Positions 1 through 58,052 of a DNA stretch of 64,000 nucleotides are shown in pieces. The position numbers were made by a program, and so were the translations under genes. The notes below the pieces were generated by a model. That model made no database searches. It was not told where the DNA came from and saw only the letters and a program-made list of their open reading frames with translations. Positions within the stretch are counted from its first letter, which is position 1. Each line of letters starts with the position of its first letter. Source of the DNA: Escherichia phage Bp7; sequence record NC_019500.1. One strand, written 5' to 3'.

Positions 1-586
1 AAAGTATTAATCGACCAAGCAGCTGCTGAGTTCGTAAGTAATGCCGAAGAGATTGCCGCGCTTCAAGCAGAGCTTGATAAAATCGTCTCTACCAAATCCA
101 CATTGGTAATGGAAAAATATCATCGTGGAATTCTGACAGAATGTTGAAGGATACTGGTATTAAAGGTTCCATTATTAAGAAATACATCCTATCTTTAATA
201 AGCAGATAAATTCTTATTTGAAGATTATGGAAGCCGACTACGTCTTTACACTAGACGAAGAGTTCAATGAGACGATTAAATCACGTGGACGTGAAGACTT
301 TAGTTATGCTTCATTTTCACAGGGTGAGAAAGCACGTATTGATATCGCACTACTTTTTACATGGCGTGATATTGCTGAAAAAGTCAGTGGAGCCACATTA
401 GTACATTAGTGTTGGATGAAGTTTTGATGAGCAGTTGACGCTGAGGCTGTTAAGGCGATTGCAAGTATTCTTAATAATCTTGAAGACAGTAATGTTTTTA
501 TAATCAGCCACAGGGACCATGACCATCAAGCATATGGCCAGCATTTACAAATGAAAAAGGTTGGTCGATTTACAATTATGGAATAA
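1..586 (+). pseudogene. 46: gene 46 recombination endonuclease subunit (SbcC/Rad50-like ATPase), 3' end; reading frame interrupted at about 141, 189, 395-410 and 420-430
   Basis: Conserved segments HRGILTE / MLKDTGIKGSIIKKYI / PIFNKQINSYLKIMEADY / SQGEKARIDIALLF (signature motif) / LVLDEV (Walker B) / NVFIISHRDH lie in three different frames, with stops in every frame around 407-430. Confidence 0.6.
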
Positions 587-2048: not shown

Positions 2049-2747
2049 ATGAAATTCTCTAAAGAAACTCTGAACATTCTGAAAAACTTCTCCGGTATTA
2101 ACCCAGGTATCATGCTTAAACCTGGTAACACTATTCTAACTCGTTCAGTAACGGGTGCAAGTTATGGTGAAGCTACTGTAAATGACACCTTTGATATCGA
2201 AGCCGCAATCTACGACCTGAACGGCTTCTTAAGTATTCTGTCATTGGTATCTGATAGTGCTGAAGTTTCGGTAAGTGAAGACCAAACCACCTTAATTATT
2301 AAAGACCAACGTTCAACTATTAAATGGCCTATTGCCGACCCAAGTACAATTGCATTCCCAAGCAAAGCTATTCCATTCCCGGTGGCTGAAGTTATTTTCG
2401 ACCTTAAAGCCGAAGATTACCAACAGTTGATGCGTGTGTCCTCTGGATTGAGTATTGATACATTTGCTATCACTGTAGACAACGGTAAAATTGTAATCAA
2501 TGGCTACAAACAAGTTGATGATAAGGACCTGGCACGTCCATTGTATTCCTTAGTGGTTGCAGACCATGATGGTCCTGAATTCAAATTCATTATCAACAAA
2601 ACTAATATGAAAATGATGCCTGCCGATTACCATGTATTGTTATGGGCTCGTGGTGAAGGTCAGGACGCTCGTTTCGCAGCCAAGTTTGAAGGTTCACAAG
2701 CTTCTTATGTATTGGCTATGGAAGCAGGCTCAAGCCACTCGTTCTAA
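2049..2747 (+). CDS. 45: gp45 sliding clamp
   Basis: 232-aa ORF alignable along its length with T4 gp45 (T4 is 228 aa). Confidence 0.9.
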   Translation: MKFSKETLNILKNFSGINPGIMLKPGNTILTRSVTGASYGEATVNDTFDIEAAIYDLNGFLSILSLVSDSAEVSVSEDQTTLIIKDQRSTIKWPIADPSTIAFPSKAIPFPVAEVIFDLKAEDYQQLMRVSSGLSIDTFAITVDNGKIVINGYKQVDDKDLARPLYSLVVADHDGPEFKFIINKTNMKMMPADYHVLLWARGEGQDARFAAKFEGSQASYVLAMEAGSSHSF

Positions 2748-3325
2748 TGTATATATGTTATCATAATACGATAACCAACACTAAAACCAAGTGTGTCTAT
2801 CATTATTTTGGTAGACACCGTGTTACTGCTGAAGAATACTACGGTACAGGTAAGTTTGTTAAGAAATGCAAACGAGAAAATGCTATTACTCCAGGTCTTT
2901 GGGAGTTTTGTGTTGAAGTTATCCATACAGTGGATACGTTTAAAGAAGCCAAGATTATTGAAGAAGAGCTTGTTAAAGAAGGCATATCAAAATATGGTAT
3001 CCTTTGTGTTAATAAGAATCCTGGTGGTGATGGCGGTGTGGATTACCACACCGAAGAATCTAAACGTAAAATGTCAGAAACTAGAACAGGAAAATCAAGA
3101 ATATTTTCCGAAAGTCATAAAGAAAATTTAAGTAAACGAGCCAGAAAATACTCTGATGTTTGGTCCGAACCTGTATATTCAAATCTTAAAACCATTTGGC
3201 TGGAAACAGGTATGTTAAAACGCGGACGGTTTAGTACGCTTTTACAAAAATATGGGTATAATTATTCTGCGAATGAATTGAATAAAATTGTTAAACATTT
3301 TAATGAGGAAAATAATAATGAGTAA
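2747..3325 (+). CDS. GIY-YIG homing endonuclease (Seg-like) with NUMOD3-type repeats
   Basis: N-terminal YICYHNTITNTKTKCVYHYFG; repeats SKRKMSETRTGK and SHKENLSKRARK; start overlaps the gp45 stop (TAATG); inserted between 45 and 44. Confidence 0.55.
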   Translation: MYICYHNTITNTKTKCVYHYFGRHRVTAEEYYGTGKFVKKCKRENAITPGLWEFCVEVIHTVDTFKEAKIIEEELVKEGISKYGILCVNKNPGGDGGVDYHTEESKRKMSETRTGKSRIFSESHKENLSKRARKYSDVWSEPVYSNLKTIWLETGMLKRGRFSTLLQKYGYNYSANELNKIVKHFNEENNNE

Positions 3326-4295
3326 AGTAGTAAATGGTTTAACTATTAATGAAAACGACTTCATGTGGGAACAGAAATATCGTCCAGGTACTTTATCTGA
3401 GTGTATTCTGCCAGCGCATGATAAAGAAACCCTCCAAGCCATTGTTAATAAGGGTCTAATCCCTAACATTATCCTAGTCTCTGCTTCACCAGGCACAGGT
3501 AAAACTACCGTAGCTAAAGCATTGTGTGCTGATACAAATTCAGATATGCTTTTTGTTAACGGTTCCGACTGCCGTATTGATTTCGTTCGTAATGAACTTA
3601 CTCGTTTTGCATCTTCCAAATCTATCGAAGGTAAACGTAAGGTAATTGTTATCGACGAATTCGACCGCGCCGGTGTTGCTGAAGCTCAACGTCACCTTCG
3701 TTCGTTCTTAGAAGCCTATTCCTCAAACTGTTCTGTAATTATTACAGCAAACAATATTGATGGTATTATCGGTCCACTTCAATCCCGTTGTCGTGTTATT
3801 AAATTTGGTGAAGCCACTCCGGCCGACCAAACAACCATGATGAAAGAAATGATTCATCGTGCTGTAGCAATCTGTAAAAACGAAAATATCGAAGTCGAAG
3901 ACCTTAAAGTTATTGCTGCCTTAGTTAAACAAAACTTTCCTGACTTCCGTAAAACAGTTAACCAACTGGACCGTTACTCATCCAGTGGTAAAATCGATAC
4001 AGGCATTTTGAGTATTGTAATGAATACCAATTCGCCTATCGATGAAGTAGTGGCTGCACTTAAAGATAAAAACTTTAAAGAACTCCGTGCATTAGCTCCA
4101 CGTCATGTCAACGATTATTCCAACTTTATTATGTCGCTGGCTAACGAACTCTATGGTAAATTGCCTGGGCCAAGCATTGTTAGAATGTACGAAATTGTCG
4201 GTGAAAATAACCAATACCACGGTATTGCGGCTAACCCAGAAATTCACATGACTTATCTGTTCATCCAACTTGCTCTGGAGCTCCAATGGCTATAA
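3318..4295 (+). CDS. 44: gp44 clamp-loader large subunit (AAA+)
   Basis: Walker A SPGTGKTT, VIVIDEFDR, SRC motif; matches T4 gp44; ATG at 3318 after a GAGGAAA RBS. Confidence 0.9.
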   Translation: MSKVVNGLTINENDFMWEQKYRPGTLSECILPAHDKETLQAIVNKGLIPNIILVSASPGTGKTTVAKALCADTNSDMLFVNGSDCRIDFVRNELTRFASSKSIEGKRKVIVIDEFDRAGVAEAQRHLRSFLEAYSSNCSVIITANNIDGIIGPLQSRCRVIKFGEATPADQTTMMKEMIHRAVAICKNENIEVEDLKVIAALVKQNFPDFRKTVNQLDRYSSSGKIDTGILSIVMNTNSPIDEVVAALKDKNFKELRALAPRHVNDYSNFIMSLANELYGKLPGPSIVRMYEIVGENNQYHGIAANPEIHMTYLFIQLALELQWL

Positions 4296-4858: not shown

Positions 4859-4863
4859 ATTAA

Positions 4864-5226
4864 ATGATTGAAATTACTCTGAAACAACCTGAAGACTTCT
4901 TGAAAGTGAAAGAGACCCTAACTCGTATGGGTATCGCTAATAATAAAGAAAAGAAACTATATCAATCCTGCCACATTCTGCAAAAGCAAGGGCTGTATTA
5001 TATAGTCCACTTTAAAGAGATGTTACGTATGGATGGTCGCCAAGTTGATATCGATGGTGAAGACTATCAACGTCGAGATTCAATTGCCCAGCTTCTTAAG
5101 GAGTGGGGACTGATTGATATTGTAGATGAATCTGAACTGTTCGAAATCACCAATAACTTCCGTGTCATTTCCTTTAAGCAGAAAAATGACTGGGAACTAC
5201 TGTCTAAGTACACCATTGGTAATTAA
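4864..5226 (+). CDS. regA: RegA translational repressor
   Basis: 120 aa; MIEITLKQPEDFLKVKETLTRMGIANNK is near-identical to T4 RegA. Confidence 0.9.
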   Translation: MIEITLKQPEDFLKVKETLTRMGIANNKEKKLYQSCHILQKQGLYYIVHFKEMLRMDGRQVDIDGEDYQRRDSIAQLLKEWGLIDIVDESELFEITNNFRVISFKQKNDWELLSKYTIGN

Positions 5227-5227
5227 T

Positions 5228-5443
5228 ATGATTCTTGAAATTGAAACGTGTGAACGTCTTAAAGAGGTATACGGACTTTCTCCAACTCAAACTGTTTTTG
5301 ACCTTTCCGAAGAGCTCCAAATAGAATTTCAAAAGGACCTCCATAAGTTGCTACATCCAGGTCAGAAAGTCTTCCAGGCTATGATTAAAACTAAAGACGA
5401 AGATGGTAATTCAACCATTAAACGTCAAACAATAGAAATTTAA
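5228..5443 (+). CDS. small hypothetical protein between regA and 43
   Basis: 71-aa ORF with its ATG directly after the regA stop. Confidence 0.3.
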   Translation: MILEIETCERLKEVYGLSPTQTVFDLSEELQIEFQKDLHKLLHPGQKVFQAMIKTKDEDGNSTIKRQTIEI

Positions 5444-5446
5444 GCA

Positions 5447-5468
5447 AAGGGACTTCGGTCCCTTTTGG
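5447..5468 (+). terminator. UUCG-tetraloop hairpin followed by a U-run (intrinsic terminator or gene 43 leader structure)
   Basis: aagggacTTCGgtccctttt. Confidence 0.45.
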
Positions 5469-5524
5469 AGTATAATGATTCATCAACAAACAAAAGACAA
5501 TCACTCGTCTATAAAGGAAATGAA

Positions 5525-8236
5525 ATGCAAGAATTCTATTTGACAGTCGAACAAATCGGTGATAATATTCTCGAACGTTACATCGATAAAAATGGTAACG
5601 AACGTAGTCGTGAAGTTCCATACAAGCCTACAATGTTTATGCATGCTAATCCAGAGCAAGCCGTAAAATACATTGATATCTACGGTAAGGGTTGTGTTAA
5701 GAAAGAATTCGACTCTATGCGTGATGCATCCCAATGGATGAAACGTATGGACGATATGGGTCTCGAAGCCCTGGGTATGGACGACTATAAATTAGCCTAT
5801 TTGTCTGATACCTATCGTAAAGAAATCAGATATGATTCTTCTAAGATTCGTATTGCTAACTTCGACATCGAGGTAACATCTCCTGATGGATTCCCTGAAC
5901 CAGCTCAGGCTAAACATCCTATCGATGCCATTACCCACTACGACTCGATTGACGATAAATTCTATGTATTCGACCTTTTAGTTTCGCCTTATGGTACTGT
6001 TGAAGAGTGGTCGATTAAAATCGCTGAGAAACTCCAAGACGAAGGCGGTGACGAAGTTCCACAAGAAATCATTGACAAAATCGTTTATCTTCCGTTTAAT
6101 TCTGAAGAAGAAATGATGCTTGAGTACTTGAATTTCTGGCAACAGAAAACTCCTGTGATTTTGACTGGATGGAACGTTGAGTCGTTTGACGTACCATACG
6201 TTTATAACCGTCTGAAAAATCTGTTCGGTGAGAACACTGCTAAGCGATTAAGCCCACATCGTAAAACTCGTGTTAAAGTTATCGAGAACATGTACGGTGC
6301 TCGTGAAATCATTACATTGTTCGGTATCTCTGTTCTGGATTATATCGACCTGTATAAAAAATTCAGCTTTACCAACCAGCCTTCTTATTCTCTGGATTAT
6401 GTTTCTGAATATGAATTGAAAGTAGGTAAGTTGAAATATGATGGCCCAATCTCCAAGTTACGTGAGACGAACCACCAACGATATATTTCCTATAACATTA
6501 TCGACGTATATCGTGTAGTGCAGATTGATATGAAGCGTCAGTTCATTCTTCTGAGTTTGGACATGGGTTATTATGCCAAGATGCAGATTCAGTCGGTGTT
6601 CAGCCCAATTAAGACTTGGGACGCTATTATCTTTAATAGCCTTAAAGAACAAGGCAAGGTAATTCCACAAGCTCGCTCACACGTGGTCCAACCTTATCCT
6701 GGTGCTTTCGTTAAGGAACCGATTCCTAACGCTTACAAATATGTAATGAGTTTCGACCTTACATCTCTGTATCCGAGTATCATTCGACAAGTGAATATAA
6801 GCCCAGAGACCATCGCAGGGACATTCGCTAACGCACCGATACATGAATATATTGCCGGAACTGCTCAGCGTCCTAGCGACACCTACAGTTGCTCTCCTAA
6901 CGGCATGATGTACTATAAAGACCGTGAAGGTGTGATTCCGACAGAAATCACCAAGGTATTCTTGCAGCGTAAAGAACATAAAGGTTACATGCTTGCAGCT
7001 CAACGTAATGGTGAGTTAATTAAAGAAGCATTGGAAAATCCTAATCTCTCAGTTGATAGTCCACTGGATATCGATTATCGTTTTGACTTCTCTGACGAAA
7101 TCAAAGCCCAGATTAAAGCACTGTCAGCGCCTTCTTTAAGAGAAATGTTGAAGAAAGCCGAGCTCACTGAAGTTGCAGGTAACACTGCTCAGATTAACCG
7201 TAAGTTGCTTATCAACTCCCTTTACGGTGCACTTGGTAACGTATGGTTCCGTTACTATGACCTCAGGAACGCAACTGCAATCACACTGTTTGGTCAAATG
7301 GCCCTCCAATGGATTGAACGTAAGGTTAACGAATATCTGAATAGCGTGTGTAAGACTGAAAATCAGAAGTTCGTGCTCTATGGTGATACTGACTCCATTT
7401 ATGTTAAGGCAGATGCAATCATCAATAAAGTAGGCGAAGATAAATTCCGTGACACTAACCACTGGGTCGACTTCTTAGATAAATTTGCACGTGAACGTAT
7501 GGAACCAGCTATTGATGCAGGCTTCCGTGAGATGTGTGAGTACATGAACAACAAACAACACTTGATGTTCATGGACCGAGAAGCTATCGCTGGTCCTCCA
7601 CTTGGTTCTAAAGGCCTTGGTGGATTCTGGACAGGCAAGAAACGTTATGCACTTAACGTTTGGGACATGGAAGGTACTCGTTATGCCGAACCACACTTGA
7701 AAATCATGGGTCTCGAAACTCAGAAATCAAGTACACCTAAAGCAGTTCAGAAAGCTCTGAAGGAATGTATCCGTCGTATGCTTCAGGAAGGCGAGGCATC
7801 TTTGCAAGAATATTTCAAACAGTTTAATAAGGAATTTAACGAACTCGATTATGTAAGCATTGCAGCAGTATCCAGTGCTAACAACATCGAGAAATATAAT
7901 GAAGGTGGATTCCCTGGCTCTAAATGTCCGTACCACATCAAAGGTTGCTTAGCTTACATGCGTGCTTCTGCAGGTGATTTGACTATGCCTCGTATCGTTG
8001 ATGGTGAAAAGGTATATGTACTGCCGCTTAAAGAAGGCAACCCGTTCGGTGAAGCTTGTATGGCATGGCCGTCAGGTATTGAACTTCCGGTTCAGATTCG
8101 TGACCAAGTCCTCCGTTGGATGGACTACAACGTACTGTTCCAAAAGACCTTTATCAAGCCTCTGACTGGTTTTACTGAGTCCGCTAAAATCGACTACGAG
8201 AAAAAAGCAACATTATTTGACATGTTTGACTTTTAA
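5525..8236 (+). CDS. 43: gp43 DNA polymerase (family B) with 3'-5' exonuclease
   Basis: 903 aa; Exo motifs FDIE and YNIIDV, polymerase motifs DLTSLYPSI, KILINSLYG, YGDTDS; start chosen at MQEFYLTVEQ (5525), not the upstream ORF-track ATG. Confidence 0.95.
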   Translation: MQEFYLTVEQIGDNILERYIDKNGNERSREVPYKPTMFMHANPEQAVKYIDIYGKGCVKKEFDSMRDASQWMKRMDDMGLEALGMDDYKLAYLSDTYRKEIRYDSSKIRIANFDIEVTSPDGFPEPAQAKHPIDAITHYDSIDDKFYVFDLLVSPYGTVEEWSIKIAEKLQDEGGDEVPQEIIDKIVYLPFNSEEEMMLEYLNFWQQKTPVILTGWNVESFDVPYVYNRLKNLFGENTAKRLSPHRKTRVKVIENMYGAREIITLFGISVLDYIDLYKKFSFTNQPSYSLDYVSEYELKVGKLKYDGPISKLRETNHQRYISYNIIDVYRVVQIDMKRQFILLSLDMGYYAKMQIQSVFSPIKTWDAIIFNSLKEQGKVIPQARSHVVQPYPGAFVKEPIPNAYKYVMSFDLTSLYPSIIRQVNISPETIAGTFANAPIHEYIAGTAQRPSDTYSCSPNGMMYYKDREGVIPTEITKVFLQRKEHKGYMLAAQRNGELIKEALENPNLSVDSPLDIDYRFDFSDEIKAQIKALSAPSLREMLKKAELTEVAGNTAQINRKLLINSLYGALGNVWFRYYDLRNATAITLFGQMALQWIERKVNEYLNSVCKTENQKFVLYGDTDSIYVKADAIINKVGEDKFRDTNHWVDFLDKFARERMEPAIDAGFREMCEYMNNKQHLMFMDREAIAGPPLGSKGLGGFWTGKKRYALNVWDMEGTRYAEPHLKIMGLETQKSSTPKAVQKALKECIRRMLQEGEASLQEYFKQFNKEFNELDYVSIAAVSSANNIEKYNEGGFPGSKCPYHIKGCLAYMRASAGDLTMPRIVDGEKVYVLPLKEGNPFGEACMAWPSGIELPVQIRDQVLRWMDYNVLFQKTFIKPLTGFTESAKIDYEKKATLFDMFDF

Positions 8237-12498: not shown

Positions 12499-13388
12499 GT
12501 TTGTTTATCGTTCCTATTTTCAGTATGCGTAGTTACGAAACAGGTGAATATGCCGTCCTTAAGGACGGTAATTTTCAACTCCATTTAAACCGTGCTTGCC
12601 CAGGTGATTATCTGGCTTATCCTAGAAATTCGAGCGATATCAAAGAATGCATTGAATTATTTCCTGAACTGAATTTTGTACCTCTTTGGTATAAAGAAAA
12701 TGCTTATGAAACTCGTAAACATTTTTGGTCTGAAAATGAGTTCGTTGTTGATTCGTTAATCGAATACTATGACTGCTCAGGATTGGTAACCGATATCACA
12801 GGTTATGAGGGTACCCAGACTGTACAATTCAACTTTAACATTACAATGGACCCTGAAGTTCCTCGTTATTATATTGATGAGTTCATTGATATCGACGTGT
12901 CTTCAGTTGAACGTTCGATTTATACTACAGTCTTGAATCAATGTCAGAAAGACGTCCTGGTGACACGAGGTGCGTCCTCTGATAAGATTTTTGTAGACCA
13001 AAAGGTAATTAATCCGGCAGTAATTGAGCGTTACTCTGAAGGTCTAGCGCCTATTAAAATTGATGGTATTTTCCATCCATTCCGTATCTCTGATAAATGC
13101 TATCAATTCGAAAGAGTTGTAGACCAAGCTGCGGCTGAAGGTTCTCGCCTTTATATCACCGATCCGAATGATTCATTTAAACGTGAAGACTATCGTCCTG
13201 ATGTAGAGATTATTAAATTCAAACCGAGTAAGGTTGAATATTATCAGATTCTGAAATCAAGACCTCATATCATTTATCATGAGAATCCTGGTTTAGTATT
13301 CCATCCAGGTCTAGCCGAATTCATTTATTTCGGTGCCCATATCCATTCTGAGCACGAAATGCCAAGTTATGAGGACGTGGTCCTTTAA
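12495..13388 (+). CDS. hypothetical protein at the position of T4 beta-glucosyltransferase; candidate DNA sugar transferase
   Basis: 297 aa, start overlaps the 42-like stop (ATGA); no motif recognised, assignment is positional only. Confidence 0.3.
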   Translation: MSLFIVPIFSMRSYETGEYAVLKDGNFQLHLNRACPGDYLAYPRNSSDIKECIELFPELNFVPLWYKENAYETRKHFWSENEFVVDSLIEYYDCSGLVTDITGYEGTQTVQFNFNITMDPEVPRYYIDEFIDIDVSSVERSIYTTVLNQCQKDVLVTRGASSDKIFVDQKVINPAVIERYSEGLAPIKIDGIFHPFRISDKCYQFERVVDQAAAEGSRLYITDPNDSFKREDYRPDVEIIKFKPSKVEYYQILKSRPHIIYHENPGLVFHPGLAEFIYFGAHIHSEHEMPSYEDVVL

Positions 13389-13413
13389 CGCTGTAAATGT
13401 GAAGTGATATAAT
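13384..13413 (+). promoter_or_regulatory. promoter upstream of uvsX
   Basis: tttaac, 18 bp, tgaTATAAT, then ccctatc. Confidence 0.3.
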
Positions 13414-13465
13414 TACCCTATCTTAAAACGTGAGTAAAATATAATGATGCCTATGGAAAAATATA

Positions 13466-14647
13466 ATGTCTGATTTAAAATCCCGTTTGATTAAAGCTTC
13501 TACTTCTAAAATGACCGCCGACCTGACCAAATCTAAATTGTTTAATGGTCGTGACGAAGTTCCTACTCGTATCCCTATGCTGAATATTGCATTGGGCGGT
13601 GCGTTGAATGCAGGCTTACAATCAGGTTTGACAATCTTTGCTGCTCCATCTAAACACTTTAAAACGTTGTTTGGACTTACCATGGTTGCGGCATATATGA
13701 AGAAATATCCAGACGCAATTTGTTTGTTCTATGACTCTGAGTTTGGTGCTTCAGAATCTTATTTCCGTTCGATGGGTGTTGATTTGGAACGTGTGGTTCA
13801 TACACCAATCCAGTCAGTCGAACAGCTTAAAGTTGATATGACCAACCAGTTAGAAGAAATTACTCGTGGCGAAAAGGTTATTATCTTTATCGACTCCATT
13901 GGTAACACTGCTTCTAAGAAAGAAACCGAAGATGCTTTGAACGAGAAAGTTGTAGGTGATATGACTCGTGCTAAATCACTGAAATCTCTGTTCCGTATCG
14001 TAACACCTTATCTGACCATCAAAGATATCCCTTGTGTAGCAATTAACCACACGGCTATGGAAATTGGTGGAATGTACCCTAAAGAGATTATGGGTGGTGG
14101 TACTGGTATTCTGTACTCTGCTTCTACCGTGTTCTTTATCTCTAAACGTCAGGTTAAAGATGGTACTGAGCTCACTGGTTATGACTTCACACTGAAGGCC
14201 GAGAAATCTCGTACGGTTAAAGAGAAATCAACGTTCCCGATTACAGTGAACTTCGAAGGTGGTATCGACCCATTCAGTGGATTGCTTGAAATGGCTACTG
14301 ATATTGGCTTTGTCGTGAAACCTAAAGCTGGCTGGTATAATCGTGCATTCCTTGACGAAACCACAGGCGAAATGGTTCAAGAAGAAAAAGCATGGCGTGC
14401 TAAAGCTACCGATTGTGTTGAGTTCTGGGGACCGCTGTTTAAACATGCTCCGTTCCGTGAAGCAATCGAGAATAAGTATAAGCTTGGTGCAATTAATTCT
14501 ATTAAAGAAGTTGACGATGCGGTAAATGACCTTATTAACTCTCGTGTCTCTAAGAACGTTGCTGTTAAATTAAGCGGAAATACCCAAAGCGCCGCTGATA
14601 TCGAAAACGATTTAGAAAATATGAATTTTGTGAGCGACCATGACTGA
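13466..14647 (+). CDS. uvsX: UvsX recombinase (RecA-like)
   Basis: MSDLKSRLIKASTSKMTADLTKSKLFNGRDEVPTRIPMLNIALGG is near-identical to T4 UvsX. Confidence 0.95.
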   Translation: MSDLKSRLIKASTSKMTADLTKSKLFNGRDEVPTRIPMLNIALGGALNAGLQSGLTIFAAPSKHFKTLFGLTMVAAYMKKYPDAICLFYDSEFGASESYFRSMGVDLERVVHTPIQSVEQLKVDMTNQLEEITRGEKVIIFIDSIGNTASKKETEDALNEKVVGDMTRAKSLKSLFRIVTPYLTIKDIPCVAINHTAMEIGGMYPKEIMGGGTGILYSASTVFFISKRQVKDGTELTGYDFTLKAEKSRTVKEKSTFPITVNFEGGIDPFSGLLEMATDIGFVVKPKAGWYNRAFLDETTGEMVQEEKAWRAKATDCVEFWGPLFKHAPFREAIENKYKLGAINSIKEVDDAVNDLINSRVSKNVAVKLSGNTQSAADIENDLENMNFVSDHD

Positions 14648-14969
14648 TTTATCTGATTTAGATAATTTTGTTAAAGATACCGAAGAGGGTCCTAGTGACC
14701 CTCGTTATTATGAGAAATCGTTAGATATAATCCGTAAGTCAATGGGTTCTGTTAAGCAGGAAATTATGCTTACTTTACCCGATGGCACTGCTCACATCGT
14801 TTATGTGATGAATATTGTTATTGAGAAAGATGGAAAAGTGTCGGTTGATTTCGGAACACCTTCCGAAGACCGAAAAGAAGAGCTAGCGCTTCATGTAGAA
14901 AAATGTGTTACAATGCAAATACAAGAAGAACTGGATAAAATTAAATCTAAGAGGTGGTGGAAGTGGTAG
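14640..14969 (+). CDS. 40: gp40-like head assembly protein
   Basis: 109-aa ORF between uvsX and 41. Confidence 0.5.
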   Translation: MTDLSDLDNFVKDTEEGPSDPRYYEKSLDIIRKSMGSVKQEIMLTLPDGTAHIVYVMNIVIEKDGKVSVDFGTPSEDRKEELALHVEKCVTMQIQEELDKIKSKRWWKW

Positions 14970-16393
14970 AAACTATTTTGGCTCAACTGCTAGGCAATAG
15001 TGATTATTTCACTAAGGTCTGGCCTTATATGAATGATTCTTATTTTGACCAGGGTCCTGCAAAGACCCTTTTCAAAGAAATTAAAAAACACGTCAATGAA
15101 TATAATGCAGTGCCTTCTAAGAACGCGCTGAGCATTGCATTAGATAACAGTACGCTTTCAGAAGTTGAACATCAAGGCGCTAAAGAGCTTTTAAGTTCAC
15201 TGAATGCCGGACCTGAAGACCAAGAATGGTTGGTTAAAGAGACGGAGAAATACGTTCAGAAAGCAGCGATGTATAATGCAACTTCAAAAATCATTGAAAT
15301 CCAAACTAATGCCGACCTTCCGGTTGAGCAACAAAATAGAAAACTTCCAGGTATTGGTGCTATTCCGGATATCATGCGTGATGCATTATCGATTTGTTTC
15401 GATTCTGAATTAGGTCATGACTGGATGGATGACTATGAAGAACGTTTCAAAAGTTATTCTGATAAAGCACGTAAGGTTCCGTTCCGTCTTAATATTCTGA
15501 ATAAGATTACCAAAGGTGGTGCCGAGTTTGGTACTGAAAACGTATTGTTGGCAGGAACAAACGTAGGTAAGTCTCTTGGTCTTTGTTCATTGGCTGCTGA
15601 TTATCTTCAATCTGGTTACGATGTTCTTTATATCTCCATGGAGATGGCAGAGGAAGTATGTGCTAAGCGTATCGATGCCAACCTTCTGGATGTATCACTG
15701 GATGATATCGATGATGGCCACGTCTCTTGGCCTGAATATAAAGCTAAGATGGATAAATGGCGTTCAACTGCTACTTTAGGTCGTTTAAAGATTAAACAGT
15801 ATCCTACTGGTGGTGCTAATGCCGATACATTCCGTGCATTATTAAACGAATACAAGCTCAAACAAAACTTTGTCCCTCAGGTTGTTATCGTCGACTACTT
15901 GGCTATCTGCGCATCGTCTCGTACGAAAGTTTTCTCTGAAAACAGTTACGGATTGATTAAGATGGTTGCTGAAGAACTACGTGGACTTGCAGTAGAGAAG
16001 AAATTATTGCTGTGGACAGCCGCCCAGACTACTCGTGGTGCAAACGTTGCAGCCGAAATCGATATGGCTGATATTGCTGAATCATTTGGTATTGCACATA
16101 CTGCAGACTTCATGTTGGGTGTGGTCGAGACAGAAGAGTTTGCTCAGATGGGTATGCAGATGGTTAAGCAGCTTAAATCTCGTTATGGTGATAAGAGCTA
16201 CTACAACAAATTTAAGATTGGTGTTAAGAAAGGAAATCAGCGTTGGTACGAAGTTGAAGATGATTCCAACCCGGGCCCAGTGAACACTGTTCGTGAGGCC
16301 ACAGGTGAGATGAATCGTCAAGCCGAGGTCAATCGACAGACGCGTGTTAATAGAAGTGATTTGGACGATTTAGCAGCATCTATCAAATTTTAA
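14954..16393 (+). CDS. 41: gp41 replicative DNA helicase (DnaB-like)
   Basis: 479 aa; LAGTNVGKSLGLCSLAADYL Walker A; co-linear with T4 gp41. Confidence 0.95.
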   Translation: MVEVVETILAQLLGNSDYFTKVWPYMNDSYFDQGPAKTLFKEIKKHVNEYNAVPSKNALSIALDNSTLSEVEHQGAKELLSSLNAGPEDQEWLVKETEKYVQKAAMYNATSKIIEIQTNADLPVEQQNRKLPGIGAIPDIMRDALSICFDSELGHDWMDDYEERFKSYSDKARKVPFRLNILNKITKGGAEFGTENVLLAGTNVGKSLGLCSLAADYLQSGYDVLYISMEMAEEVCAKRIDANLLDVSLDDIDDGHVSWPEYKAKMDKWRSTATLGRLKIKQYPTGGANADTFRALLNEYKLKQNFVPQVVIVDYLAICASSRTKVFSENSYGLIKMVAEELRGLAVEKKLLLWTAAQTTRGANVAAEIDMADIAESFGIAHTADFMLGVVETEEFAQMGMQMVKQLKSRYGDKSYYNKFKIGVKKGNQRWYEVEDDSNPGPVNTVREATGEMNRQAEVNRQTRVNRSDLDDLAASIKF

Positions 16394-16417
16394 GGAGCTT
16401 CGGCTCCTTTTTTGTTT
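16393..16417 (+). terminator. intrinsic terminator with UUCG tetraloop
   Basis: aggagcTTCGgctcc followed by tttttgtttt. Confidence 0.6.
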
Positions 16418-18564: not shown

Positions 18565-19593
18565 ATGTCATATGTCGATAAAGAATTTGCTGTACGTGCC
18601 TTGAATTACCAACCTAAATTCAGACAAGTAACTGGTAGTGATTTTAAATTAAACTGTCGTTGTCGTGTATGCGGTGACTCTCAAAAAGATGAGAACAAAG
18701 CTCGTTTTTGGGCCTATCCGGCTAATGACGGCTCTGTAATGCTGCACTGTTTTAACTGTGACTATTCAGCAGGAATTAAGAAGTATCTATACGAATACGA
18801 GCCTGATTTATATCGCGAATATATTCTTGAGAAACATAAAGAGCAATCGTTCGGGAGACAAGCTGCACCTAAGGTGGAGATATCTGAAAAAATTAAAGCT
18901 AAGATGCCTGTCATCGAAAAGCTTAATTTCTGTGAACGATTAGATAGGATGCCGAAGGACCATCCTATTATCAAATATGTGACGTTACGTTGCATTCCTG
19001 AAAACAAATGGAACCGGCTGTGGTTTACTAAAGAATGGCCTGCATTAGTTAACTCTGTGAATCCAGGGACCTATTCTAAAGAAATGCCTGAGCCTCGTTT
19101 GGTTATTCCAATTTTCAATAAGAATAAACAAATTGAAAGTTTTCAGGGTCGAGCCTTACGTAAAGATGCTCCACAAAAATATATTACAATAAAAGCTCAC
19201 GACCAAGCTACAAAAATATATGGAATGGATACAGTTGACGAACGTCAGTTGGTGTGGGTAATGGAAGGCCCTATTGACTCTTTGTTTGTTCCGAATGCAA
19301 TAGCAATTACTGGCGGGTCGTTGGACTTGGCTATGGTTCCGTGCAAAGAAACTAGGGTTTGGGCCCTTGATAGCGAAAGCCGCCACCCAGATACTATTTC
19401 AAGAATGAAAAAGCTTATCGAGGCTGGTGAAAAAGTAGTGTTTTGGGATAAGGTCCCTTGGCCTTCTAAAGATATTAACGATATGATTAGAAAAGACGGG
19501 GCGTCGCCGGAAGCAATACTAGAATATATGAAAAGTAATTACAGTCAAGGATTAATGGCTAAATTGAGATTACAACGGTATGCTAAAATATGA
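18565..19593 (+). CDS. 61: gp61 DNA primase
   Basis: 342 aa; zinc ribbon CRCRVCGD...CFNC; FQGRALRKDAPQKYITI resembles T4 gp61. Confidence 0.9.
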   Translation: MSYVDKEFAVRALNYQPKFRQVTGSDFKLNCRCRVCGDSQKDENKARFWAYPANDGSVMLHCFNCDYSAGIKKYLYEYEPDLYREYILEKHKEQSFGRQAAPKVEISEKIKAKMPVIEKLNFCERLDRMPKDHPIIKYVTLRCIPENKWNRLWFTKEWPALVNSVNPGTYSKEMPEPRLVIPIFNKNKQIESFQGRALRKDAPQKYITIKAHDQATKIYGMDTVDERQLVWVMEGPIDSLFVPNAIAITGGSLDLAMVPCKETRVWALDSESRHPDTISRMKKLIEAGEKVVFWDKVPWPSKDINDMIRKDGASPEAILEYMKSNYSQGLMAKLRLQRYAKI

Positions 19594-20345
19594 ATTATAA
19601 TAAAATTTATGACGATTTGGTTAATAGGGCCCTTGAAAGGGGTCTTATTAAAGAAAATTTAAAATACTATACAGAATCTCATCATATTATACCTGAATGT
19701 ATAGGTGGGCCTGATATAGATTCAAACAAAGTATTATTTACGGCAAGAGAGCATTTTATAGCTCACATATTATTGTATAAGATTTATAAGTTGCCTAAAT
19801 TAATATATGCTGTGCATATGATGTGCAATTCTAGTGAAAAGCACCAAAGAAATTCTAAGATGTATGACTGGCTTAGAAAGGACCATAAAGCAGCCTTAAG
19901 TAAGAAAATGACCGATGCTTGGAAAGCCCCTGAATTTAGGACCAAAATGGTGGCGGCCTTATACCAAAGGCACAAAGATAAGCCCGTCACAGAGGAGACT
20001 AGGGAAAAACAGTCTAATTCTCTAAAGAGGTATTATAAAGAAAATCCTATCTCTGAAGAAGCAAAAAAGAAAAATTCAGAAGCCCAAAAACAAAGGTTTA
20101 AAGATAGGCCTCAAACAGAAGAAACAAAAAGATTAAGGAAGGACTCATGCAGAAAAACCCAAGGCACCCCTATATGGTTATGTAATTCGAATGGGGTAGG
20201 AATAGAAAAGTTTTCTTCTGCGGCAGAAGCTAAAGAAATCTTAGGATTGTCCGGGCACACCCAAAATATATACACCGCTTGTAAGCGAAACAAAGAAACC
20301 GGGAGATTGTATAAATCCTCCGGTTTAATTTGGAAATATCAATAA
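19590..20345 (+). CDS. HNH homing endonuclease (Mob-like), paralogous to the 592-1308 gene
   Basis: HHIIPECIGGPD; N-terminus MNYNKIYDDLVNRALERG parallels MNYKSIYEKLIQRAVNR; AT-rich with AGA/AGG/ATA codons; start overlaps the gp61 stop (ATGA). Confidence 0.7.
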   Translation: MNYNKIYDDLVNRALERGLIKENLKYYTESHHIIPECIGGPDIDSNKVLFTAREHFIAHILLYKIYKLPKLIYAVHMMCNSSEKHQRNSKMYDWLRKDHKAALSKKMTDAWKAPEFRTKMVAALYQRHKDKPVTEETREKQSNSLKRYYKENPISEEAKKKNSEAQKQRFKDRPQTEETKRLRKDSCRKTQGTPIWLCNSNGVGIEKFSSAAEAKEILGLSGHTQNIYTACKRNKETGRLYKSSGLIWKYQ

Positions 20346-24521: not shown

Positions 24522-25270
24522 ATGCCTACTATTAAAACTAACGATGAATTTGAGTTAAAGGTTTACAAACGTCGCGAACACACTAAAGCCTCTGCCAAAA
24601 AACGTGGTAAGGACTTTAACCTGTCTAGTAAGTACGTTCGTAGACTTCTTGAACAAAAAGTGTGTGCATATTCAGGCGAGCGCTTTGATGAGAATTCAGA
24701 TAAAGATAAGATTTCGTTTGAACGCTTTAACAACGATATAGGTTATATCGAAGGTAATGTAATCCCGGTTAAAGTTAAGTACAACGGGTTGCGAGCTGAT
24801 TTGTCTTTAGATGAATTGAAACGTGCACAGACTCGTTTAGCGTCCCGTATTTCAGGTGGTTCTAAAATGCCTAATAGTTTTAAAGTTACCCCAGATAATT
24901 ATTATAAAATTCGTAAAATAGTTAAAAATATTAAAGATACCCAAAGAGGTCTTAAAAAGCGTGAAAAACGTCTTAAGGACCTTATTAAATCAGGAGCCAC
25001 TGATAATACCCCTTCTGTCATCGCGGTTAAGGCCCGTATCCATGGTTCTAACGCTTCAATAGGTACTATGGAAAAGGGTCTCAAATCTATATTGGTGGGC
25101 CTGATTGGCGTGTCAAGTTTAAATTGTCTGAAGCAGAAACGCGTTACTATATGTATGATAAAATTATTCAAGGTCTGGAGCGTTTAGAACACCTTTCTTT
25201 TATTGACAAAATGAAGTTGAAAAAAGGTCTTCCGCTGAATGCTTCAATTTTTTCACTGATTAGAGGTTAA
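24522..25270 (+). CDS. hypothetical protein (srd position) with an apparent single-base frameshift near 25074-25079
   Basis: Frame-0 ORF 24522..25187 and an ATG-less frame-2 ORF 25052..25270 overlap; they join if one base is added in gaaaaggg. Confidence 0.3.
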
Positions 25271-27877: not shown

Positions 27878-28351
27878 ATGAAAATTTATCGAGTGGAGTC
27901 ATCGTTTAGTATCTTAGACAACAGCGATGTTATCACAATCACTCGTCATCAATGTCGCCAATTAACCCCGTATAGAGGCTCATTTGACGAATGGAGTGAA
28001 GGTTGGTTATTGGAAGTAGGTTTCGACAGACCTAATTTTAGACACCATCATACCAATAATAAAAATATTCCATTACCAAGTCAAGACGAATTGTTGGTTA
28101 AAAATTCTAATATGGTAATTAAAACCAAATTCGAACATGAAGATTATAAAGGTGTAGATAACTACATTCCAGGTTGGTTTGTCAATCTCTACCATTTTGC
28201 TTTTGCCAGCGAGTATGATATGATGCGCTGGTTCACTCGTGAAGAGCGTGCTGAATTATCTTCTAAAGGATTTTACCTTGCTGTTACGAAATACCTGAAG
28301 ATGAGTTGTCATTGGTGGCCGCCAAGTAAGGTTCCGCAAATCCCATGCTGA
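27878..28351 (+). CDS. hypothetical protein
   Basis: 157-aa ORF. Confidence 0.35.
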   Translation: MKIYRVESSFSILDNSDVITITRHQCRQLTPYRGSFDEWSEGWLLEVGFDRPNFRHHHTNNKNIPLPSQDELLVKNSNMVIKTKFEHEDYKGVDNYIPGWFVNLYHFAFASEYDMMRWFTREERAELSSKGFYLAVTKYLKMSCHWWPPSKVPQIPC

Positions 28352-28493
28352 ACTCGTAGATTTATGAATGAGAACAATATGAAATTTAATTACAACCCTA
28401 AATACACCCCGAATCCAGCAGCTAAACTGATTGATTTGATGTTTTAAGCACTTATGTATGCCTGTTAAACCACTGGAAATTAAGGAACCTGCT

Positions 28494-30361: not shown

Positions 30362-31042
30362 ATGAAATATATAACATACTTAACAATATATGATGGAACA
30401 AAGCTACCTCCATTTTATATAGGCTCCACTTATTTGGATAAACACCTAGCTGGATATCATGGTTCGGTTACATCCAAAAAGTACGAAGACCTATATAATA
30501 AAGAGCTTGAGGAACACCCTGAATTATTTGATAGCATGATTTTGGGTGAATTTGAAACCAGAGAAGAAGCTACATTTTGTGAGCTTTATTACCAAAAACT
30601 TTATAACGTTGTTAAAAGTAATTTATTTTTCAATATGGCATATGCTACCGTTGACGGATGTTTTGGTATGGATGTTTGTAAAGAAAATAATCCATTTTGG
30701 AACCATAAACATTCTGAAAGTACATTAAAAGCCCAATCTGATGCTAAGATTGGAGAGCTTAATCCTATGTACGGGACTAAACGCCCTGAGCATTCTAAAG
30801 CAATGTCAAAAGAAAATAATCCTTTTTATGATAAGAAACACACCGAAGAAGGATTGGTTAAGTGTGGAATTAAAAATCGTAAAAGTCCGGTATGGGAATA
30901 TGAATCTGCTTTAGAAAAATTATGGTTAGAATTAGATAAACCTAAATTGGCTATGTTTATGCGAGAAAGTATTAAACGCGGTTTTCCTGAAGGTTCATAC
31001 AAAAATATTTTACGACAATTCGAGAGAAGACATAATGATTGA
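30362..31042 (+). CDS. GIY-YIG homing endonuclease (Seg-like) with NUMOD3 repeats
   Basis: FYIGSTYLDKHLAGYHGS; NPFWNHKHSESTLKAQSD, NPMYGTKRPEHSKAMS, NPFYDKKHTEEG. Confidence 0.6.
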   Translation: MKYITYLTIYDGTKLPPFYIGSTYLDKHLAGYHGSVTSKKYEDLYNKELEEHPELFDSMILGEFETREEATFCELYYQKLYNVVKSNLFFNMAYATVDGCFGMDVCKENNPFWNHKHSESTLKAQSDAKIGELNPMYGTKRPEHSKAMSKENNPFYDKKHTEEGLVKCGIKNRKSPVWEYESALEKLWLELDKPKLAMFMRESIKRGFPEGSYKNILRQFERRHND

Positions 31043-38481: not shown

Positions 38482-38661
38482 ATGAAACTTTTTAAAGATG
38501 TGGTAGTCGGCGAGAGCTTTGTATTGCATAATGGCCAACAACTGATTCGCATTTCTCCTTTGCAAGTTGGGACCGAATTACAACCTGTTAATGCTACAGA
38601 CCTTTATGATTCAACTAAGCGGTTTTTGTGTAGGGCCAAGTGTACAGTGCCTTACTGTTGA
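38482..38661 (+). CDS. hypothetical protein
   Basis: 59-aa ORF. Confidence 0.3.
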   Translation: MKLFKDVVVGESFVLHNGQQLIRISPLQVGTELQPVNATDLYDSTKRFLCRAKCTVPYC

Positions 38662-38704
38662 TGAACTGATGGAATTTCTGTTGACGCTGAATAAGGAAAA
38701 TATT

Positions 38705-41820: not shown

Positions 41821-42455
41821 ATGTCTAAAATTACTTATATCATCAAAGCTTCTGAAGACGCCCTGAATGAAAAAACGGCTTCGATCTTAGTACATATCAT
41901 CAAGCATAACTTCATCACTTCAGGCGAAGTCCGTGAAGCCCTGAGTGAGCAATTTAGTGCTGCGGTAGTTAACTCTAATATCGGTGTATTAATTAAGAAA
42001 GGATTCATCGAAAATCTGGTGACGGACTAGTGGCTACAGGTGAAGCAATGGACCTAGTTCAAAAAGCTGCTGACTTGTTCGCTTCTGAAAATGCTCCAGA
42101 GATGTTGGAAAAACGTAAAACGCGTAGTTCACGTGGTGTTACTCCTGAAATGGTAACACTGGCTGATGAAGTTAAAGCTTTATTAGAAGACCGTATCGAG
42201 ATTCGTGAAATTGCTGAAAACCGTAGCAACCTTGAAGTTCGATTCGCTAAACGTACCAACGGTATTCGTCAAATCGAAGTCCGTCGTGATGGAATGATGC
42301 GTATCTTCGGTTATAATATGACTGATAAAGAAAAACAAGTGTTTACTTCCTTGAATCTTGATGTTAAGATTAAGACTGGTGGTAAGAATACTTATATCGA
42401 CTTCCAAAACGTATCATCTGAAGTTATCAAAACCGTAACCAACGCAATTATCTGA
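41821..42455 (+). CDS. motA: MotA middle-transcription activator, split by a -1 frameshift in an A4 run at 42011-42014
   Basis: N-terminal part MSKITYIIKASEDALNEKTASILVHI...GVLIKKGFIE, then KSGDGLVATGEAMDLV... in the -1 frame; C-terminal part RIFGYNMTD; T4 MotA is 211 aa. Confidence 0.6.
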
Positions 42456-57420: not shown

Positions 57421-58052
57421 ATATAGTTTATAAAATGACTTGGCTTAATCGTCAGGCTAATAATATTAAGCCGTTTTCGTACATAGGTTCTAAAACTAAT
57501 TGTACTTTTGAAAATGGCGTGATTATTGACTGTAAAGGTAAAGAGTATTGGACCTCTTGCGAGCAATCAAGATTTAAAGAGGCCATCGAAGAAGAAAAAC
57601 CTATTGTTGAAATTTTGGCTATAACGCCATTTGATATTGTTATTAATATTGAACGTTCAGAACAATTGGAAGTTCAAGCTAGAGATAATGATGATTATTT
57701 TAATTTGGTTTATGCCGGTGGCGGATTTGGAGTCTTTGGATGCACTCACCCAGCCAAACGTCCTGAAGTTAGAGCCCATATGAAAGCTGCTAACTATATG
57801 AATCAACCCGATTACCGTCCTTGGAAAACTTCTAGAGCAAACCCTTTAGATTGGATGCTTAGTGATATTGCTTATACTAATTATTGTATAATTAATTCTA
57901 GTGGAAGAGCTTGTGGATGGAGGCGTCTCATTAACTCTGGTATAAATGTTAGTGAAACTACATCAAAGAGTATGATTAAACAATTTAATGAGGGTTGGGT
58001 TCCTAATGATGACCCTGAATTCATTAAGTTAAAAATGCTTTATTCGAAGTGA
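57417..58052 (+). CDS. possible GIY-YIG homing endonuclease, SegG-like by position (between 59 and 32)
   Basis: N-terminal IVYKMTWLNRQANNIKPFSYIGSKTN; TTG start overlapping the gp59 stop. Confidence 0.35.
   Translation: MNIVYKMTWLNRQANNIKPFSYIGSKTNCTFENGVIIDCKGKEYWTSCEQSRFKEAIEEEKPIVEILAITPFDIVINIERSEQLEVQARDNDDYFNLVYAGGGFGVFGCTHPAKRPEVRAHMKAANYMNQPDYRPWKTSRANPLDWMLSDIAYTNYCIINSSGRACGWRRLINSGINVSETTSKSMIKQFNEGWVPNDDPEFIKLKMLYSK

Follow-up and report, generated by a model that had tools for sequence, protein, structure and literature searches.

Frame breaks at the 3' end of gene 46 in a Dhakavirus sequence are most probably base undercalls in the record

The 3' part of gene 46, which opens the window (the whole 64,000-nucleotide stretch of DNA analysed here), is interrupted by five single-base deletions, and comparison of this sequence with related ones makes it probable, at roughly 0.88, that these frame breaks come from undercalled bases in patches where the record is of low quality. 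The real gene 46 of the phage is most likely intact. The five breaks in positions 1-430 would then be bases that are absent from the deposited or assembled sequence, undercalled mostly at short homopolymer runs within about 300 bp of weak read support, and the same process would have produced a second patch at 28283-28460 and the scattered single events elsewhere in the window. The nature of the lesions points to a technical cause (low coverage or low-quality reads) rather than a biological one. The frame disruption exists in the sequence as given and is not a new biological feature; the lesions, their private status, direction, context and clustering, their indifference to coding function and the conservation of the protein after repair are direct observations and are described below.

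The window belongs to the genus Dhakavirus of T4-like coliphages. The portions of it that were searched (1-25000 and 39001-64000) have about 95% nucleotide identity to KIT01, QL01, MX01 and FB, BLAST shows KIT01 and QL01 to be collinear with it over its whole length, and the phage collection contains no record identical to it (JS98 and IME08 reach 96% and 93%, respectively). Exact look-ups with the HNH, seg-like, gp43, gp38 and gp37 proteins and with the truncated gp46 product gave relatives or no match. Gene 46 has the same position as in the Dhakavirus relatives, where the order is 47, 46.2, 46, HNH gene, 45.2, rpbA, 45; in the window it is followed by the HNH gene (- strand, convergent with gene 46), 45.2, rpbA, gene 45, an endonuclease-like ORF at 2747-3325, 44, 62, regA and 43. 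The two features with which the window begins are:

1-586, + strand: 3' part of gene 46, codons 365-560 of 560 by alignment to annotated relatives, with its stop codon TAA at 584-586.
592-1308, - strand: intact gene for an HNH (mob-like) free-standing homing endonuclease, 98.7% identical in amino acid sequence to the mob-like protein of KIT01 and matching phrog_655 at 2.6e-68.

The first-pass annotation of this DNA had taken 1-586 as the 3' end of gene 46 with its conserved segments in three different frames, and both three-frame translation and the relatives bear this out. An inverted repeat, AAGCCTC-TTATT-GAGGCTT, lies at 585-603 between the stop codon of gene 46 (584-586) and that of the convergent HNH gene (592-594), and the hairpin it could form is probably a bidirectional terminator common to the two genes. 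Gene 46 alleles that are followed by the HNH gene share 93-97% identity with those that lack it along most of their length, and over the last ~300 nt (window ~290-586; L002 3281-3591 compared with QL01 and L018) this identity falls to 86% and then to 72%. Such a sharp mosaic boundary near the HNH insertion is what homing-site divergence or co-conversion would be expected to leave.

As recorded, the gp46 segments occupy three frames along the path 1 > 3 > 2 > 1 > 3 > 2 (three-frame translation). We aligned positions 1-640 of the window with four relatives that have an intact gp46 of 560 amino acids (MX01, KIT01, IME281 and 04086). The first-pass annotation had counted four lesions in gene 46; this alignment gives five, every one of them a single-base deletion, and a tandem repeat that is not a lesion:

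140-141, + strand: lesion 1, AAA > AA, one A lost (AAA in all relatives); frame 1 then reaches a TGA at 145-147.
187, + strand: lesion 2, TT > T, ACATTCC > ACATCC (TT in all relatives).
392-393, + strand: lesion 3, a T lost between G392 and C393, GGAGTCC > GGAGCC, which changes the frame before LVLDEV.
422-425, + strand: lesion 4, T5 > T4 (T5 in the relatives).
429, + strand: lesion 5, GG > G, GATGGAGC > GATGAGC (GG in the relatives).
395-410, + strand: exact tandem repeat ACATTAGT-ACATTAGT, native coding sequence (His-Ile-Ser-Thr-Leu-Val), present in MX01, KIT01, IME281 and 04086.

The A that had been proposed as missing near 139-143 is indeed the one lost at 140-141. A base is also missing where a lost C had been suggested near 186-190, but that base is a T, and the further +1 shift placed between 420 and 431 is correct as a net shift but is made by two deletions (422-425 and 429) rather than by one event. 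The Walker B segment LVLDEV is, as had been stated, out of frame, and is stranded in frame 1. The supposed duplication at 395-410 is there as an exact repeat, but as a mutational event it is ruled out, since every intact relative carries it, read in frame as GTC CAC ATT AGT ACA TTA GTG; the TAG that had been attributed to it is present too, but is due to the T lost at 392/393, which puts the reading in the wrong frame. The 64-kb window contains one 8-bp tandem repeat of this kind, against 1.4 expected from base composition.

All five deletions are private to the window when it is compared with more than 10 relatives (MX01, KIT01, IME281, 04086, QL01, PSD2002 and about 5-6 metagenomic contigs), and a lesion-bearing 59-mer has no exact match in the viral contig collection. 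The comparison with the closest relatives that had been proposed as a check finds gp46 to be an intact protein of 560 amino acids in every compared relative or contig that holds the whole gene. No lesion lies in the window's first 139 bases. Among these relatives, PSD2002 (L010, OK335775) has its gene 43 called in two pieces of 572 and 334 amino acids with a 219-nt gap between them (12781-15722), which may mean an insertion, a split gene or one more flawed record.

When the five bases are restored, the 196 codons form one frame, and 194 of the 196 amino acids are identical to residues 365-560 of KIT01 gp46. The only differences are S525N and P541H, both private and non-synonymous, which could be either more errors or true variation. 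Repair brings the ABC signature SQGE, Walker B LVLDEV, D-loop FDG and H-loop ISH back intact into one frame, and the repaired FSQGEKAR...STLVLDEVFDG...FIISHRD is identical to that of KIT01; as recorded, these motifs fall in different frames. The repaired 196-residue fragment alone matches Pfam SMC_N at 1.4e-6 (28.3 bits, against a gathering score of 40) and SbcC_Walker_B at 1.7e-3 (19 bits, against a gathering score of 27), while the full-length gp46 proteins of the relatives match SMC_N, AAA_23 and AAA_29; the N-terminal Walker A, the coiled coil and the adjoining Mre11-like partner gene 47 are present in all relatives. In the alignment of positions 1-590, the private branch of the window carries 5 indels and 3 true substitutions, and the private changes of six relatives pooled in that same alignment are 0 indels and 13 substitutions.

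Is this kind of lesion confined to gene 46? The rest of the window was scanned by mapping all annotated KIT01 CDSs by tblastn, and then the mechanical ORFs of ten relatives. The earlier statement that gene 43 and other long genes are intact holds for the large genes (43, 41, uvsX, dda, 39, 52, rIIA, rIIB, 34-37, 32, rnh and nrdA are each in a single frame), but motA, srd, motB.1, motB.2 and ndd.1 are, like gene 46, frameshifted. The events outside gene 46 are:

4861-4863, + strand: intergenic deletion A4 > A3 just 5' of the regA ATG (alignment).
16414-16415, + strand: intergenic single-base deletion downstream of gene 41 (alignment).
25088-25091, + strand: srd frameshift, a single-base deletion plus a substitution (protein scan and alignment).
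28283-28460, + strand: second patch, about seven single-base homopolymer contractions at the motB.2/motB.1 junction, both genes broken (base-level alignment).
38622-38673, + strand: ndd.1, a one-base insertion G > GG at 38622 and a one-base deletion at 38673, 51 nt apart with two stop codons between them.
42011-42014, + strand: motA, A5 > A4, frameshift at codon 64/65, both halves 100% identical in amino acid sequence to KIT01.

The events of the motB patch are private to the window when it is compared with KIT01, QL01, AnYang and 04086, and they span 180 bp across the boundary between two genes. As recorded, motA consists of a 69-residue N-terminal piece and a 141-residue ORF that begins at a GTG start codon. 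No phage record in the phage collection shares the motA or motB lesions. The local concentration noticed in the first pass is real for gene 46 (P = 2e-7, below), but there is a denser patch 28 kb away and other genes are affected as well. The 3' end of uvsX and the start of gene 40 also contain an in-frame 9-nt insertion, TGAGCGACC, at 14631-14639, which is private to the window relative to KIT01 and QL01.

The free-standing homing endonuclease genes of the window, which match PHROG homing/HNH families with E values of 9e-17 to 3e-110, are all intact:

592-1308, - strand: the HNH gene that abuts gene 46.
2747-3325, + strand: homing endonuclease gene.
19590-20345, + strand: homing endonuclease gene.
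30362-31042, + strand: homing endonuclease gene.
57435-58052, + strand: homing endonuclease gene.

The last four are absent from KIT01 and QL01, and that at 57435-58052 lies between genes 59 and 32, the position of segG in T4. Because all five of these selfish genes are intact, the damage in the window does not follow a pattern of selective decay.

Altogether 18 such events were found in the window, 17 deletions and 1 insertion, all private. Clustered events escape the strict context filter of the three-way indel scan, and these were recovered by direct alignment and by the protein-level scans. Many apparent indels at 19.4-21.7 kb, 31.5-31.8 kb and 45-46 kb compensate one another in pairs within divergent stretches that include the tail-fibre genes; they were left out of the count and set aside as alignment noise or real divergence. 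Sixteen of the 18 events lie in coding sequence, which is roughly random placement if the genome is taken to be a densely coding T4-like one. The same three-way alignments provide a control: the short indels (1-2 nt) private to KIT01 or QL01 number seven, and every one of them lies in a spacer. Natural indels are filtered by selection and those of the window are unfiltered: 16/18 of the latter and 0/7 of the former are in coding sequence.

The context and spacing of the deletions are also informative. Short runs (2-5 bases) account for 14 of the 17 deletions, the background being 50% (P = 0.007), and the three outside any run are those after 392, at 16414 and at 38673. The window also has 46 runs of at least 6 bases, the places in which one would expect biological slippage or phase variation to be concentrated, and no deletion occurs in any of them. 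Homopolymer contraction is the commonest class of real frameshift mutation too, so context alone does not tell an artefact from a mutation. Given the window-wide rate, the Poisson probability is 2e-7 for five events in 430 bp and 3e-13 for seven events in 200 bp, and the sizes of the patches (about 300, 180 and 50 bp) suggest stretches of poor reads or thin coverage. By eye, no common motif of the sort that would hint at a modification-dependent basecalling error is evident around the lesions. The sequence thus combines a bias toward deletions, a homopolymer context, placement regardless of coding or essential status, and read-sized patches at 140-429 and 28283-28460.

Could successive slippage mutations in the lineage, or in the sequenced laboratory stock, instead have cost the phage the C-terminal ATPase half of its gp46, as well as motA, srd, motB.1/.2 and ndd.1? 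The genes motB.1, motB.2, srd and ndd.1 are accessory in T4, and decay of such small genes is plausible; the lesions do stand in the given sequence, slippage at homopolymers is a class of mutation that occurs in nature, and the gp46 tail carries two private non-synonymous changes. We nevertheless regard a decaying pseudogene, which was one of the alternatives offered in the first pass, as unlikely. Lesion 1 already leads to a stop codon at 145-147, so that four further frameshifts would have had to build up neutrally, yet the 5 indels come with only 3 substitutions, and after repair the protein shares 99% identity with its orthologues (194/196 amino acids), which is not the relaxed constraint of a decaying gene. 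None of the more than 10 relatives shares any of the lesions, as inheritance would require, the short natural indels of KIT01 and QL01 are all intergenic, and the lesions of the window fall in patches of 180-300 bp that are blind to gene boundaries. The function of the protein argues in the same direction. The gp46/47 complex is the Mre11/Rad50 orthologue and resects DNA ends for recombination-dependent replication (PMC3016280), and its inactivation gives the strongest DNA-arrest phenotype, the proteins being called essential in T4 (PMC3016281). A gp46 cut at about codon 412 would be without the signature, Walker B and H-loop, and a second 46/47-like gene, for which a search had been proposed, is absent from the 64-kb window. 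That the sequence is simply correct, and that a viable Dhakavirus truly is without the gp46 ATPase C-terminus and has a split MotA, seems to us very improbable; a viable phage with gp46 and motA nulls and yet with perfectly conserved residual coding is much less likely than a flawed record. If it were true, end resection, recombination-dependent replication and middle transcription would have to be carried out by host functions or by unknown ones of the phage.

Two other biological explanations have still less to recommend them. The neighbouring HNH gene (592-1308) abuts gene 46, and the sharp divergence between HNH+ and HNH- alleles over the last ~300 nt of gene 46 would suit recurrent cutting near that gene's 3' end with error-prone repair, but gene 46 is intact in four relatives with the same HNH insertion (MX01, KIT01, IME281 and 04086), and the same type of lesion is found in genes that have no homing endonuclease gene beside them (motB.1/.2, motA, srd and ndd.1), so we hold collateral damage of this kind to be highly improbable. 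Programmed recoding (ribosomal frameshifting, bypassing of the gene 60 type or transcriptional slippage) would decode the breaks rather than suffer them, and T4-like phages do include the translational bypassing of gene 60. It would, however, have to supply five separate +1 corrections within 290 nt at sites with runs of 1-5 bases, which are too short for transcriptional slippage, and lesions of the same kind are also present in spacers. At each site the frame is uninterrupted in every relative, so that there is no conserved recoding signal, and we reject recoding on the strength of this uninterrupted frame in all relatives at all five sites; we give it next to no weight. The other alternative offered in the first pass, a low-quality end of a sequence record, fares differently. 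Its first half, low-quality sequence, is supported; its second half is not, in that nothing shows position 1 to be the end of the record and the second patch is internal. A low-coverage contig end, in which the assembly was opened at an arbitrary point, position 1, and thin terminal coverage caused the errors, is a sub-case of the undercall explanation, which does not need it. The densest gp46 lesions are no more than 430 bp from the window start, and other Dhakavirus records open near gene 46 (it is at 2184-3866 in 04086, and its 3' end is at 1400-2031 in AnYang), but the first 139 bases are clean, the patch at 28283-28460 is equally dense, and single events lie at 25 kb, 38 kb and 42 kb. A contig end is possible but doubtful, and because the second patch is internal a terminal position is unneeded.

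If the breaks are indeed undercalls, the value of recognising them is mainly one of data hygiene. Read literally, the record would imply, strikingly, that a T4-like phage manages without its Mre11/Rad50-type nuclease and MotA; automated annotation will report fragments or pseudogenes for gp46, motA, srd, motB.1, motB.2 and ndd.1, from which comparative studies would derive false gene losses. Three measures together form a test that can be reused on other records: how many private indels there are per private substitution, where indels fall (coding sequence or spacers) relative to those of relatives, and how well the protein is conserved after repair.

How does the window compare with known systems? 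The gp46 proteins of KIT01 (BBI57404.1), MX01 (YP_009323952.1) and IME281 (YP_010094364.1) are orthologues of T4 gp46, the Rad50/SbcC-like subunit of the gp46/47 nuclease, and their genes have 97-98% nucleotide identity to gene 46 of the window. Unlike these genes, that of the window is without five single bases and is read in three frames, and its S525N and P541H are private. T4 gene 60 is the classic case of translational bypassing, and the window shares with it, and with programmed frameshifts, an interrupted frame in a replication/recombination gene of a T4-like phage; the window has no conserved gap, no take-off and landing pair and no slippery site, and is not a member of that class. A second flawed record exists among the close Dhakavirus relatives: 04086 (L004, OR842557), for which only 148 features are annotated, also has damage in essential genes, with gp47 and gp45 present as overlapping duplicated pieces in different frames (157-1659 and 5052-5961, respectively). 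Its defects are segmental duplications, a signature of mis-assembly, rather than single-base deletions, and its gene 46 is intact; the 04086 record looks mis-assembled. The closest likeness is to the known homopolymer and low-quality artefacts that make false frameshifts and pseudogenes, homopolymer-length variation being a recognised sequencing artefact (PMC4746626). The window, a probable member of this class, departs from it in that three of its deletions lie outside runs. It is like them in its 17:1 bias toward deletions, in the enrichment of these in short runs, in its patches of a few hundred bases, in its blindness to coding and essentiality, and in the restriction of the lesions to one record.
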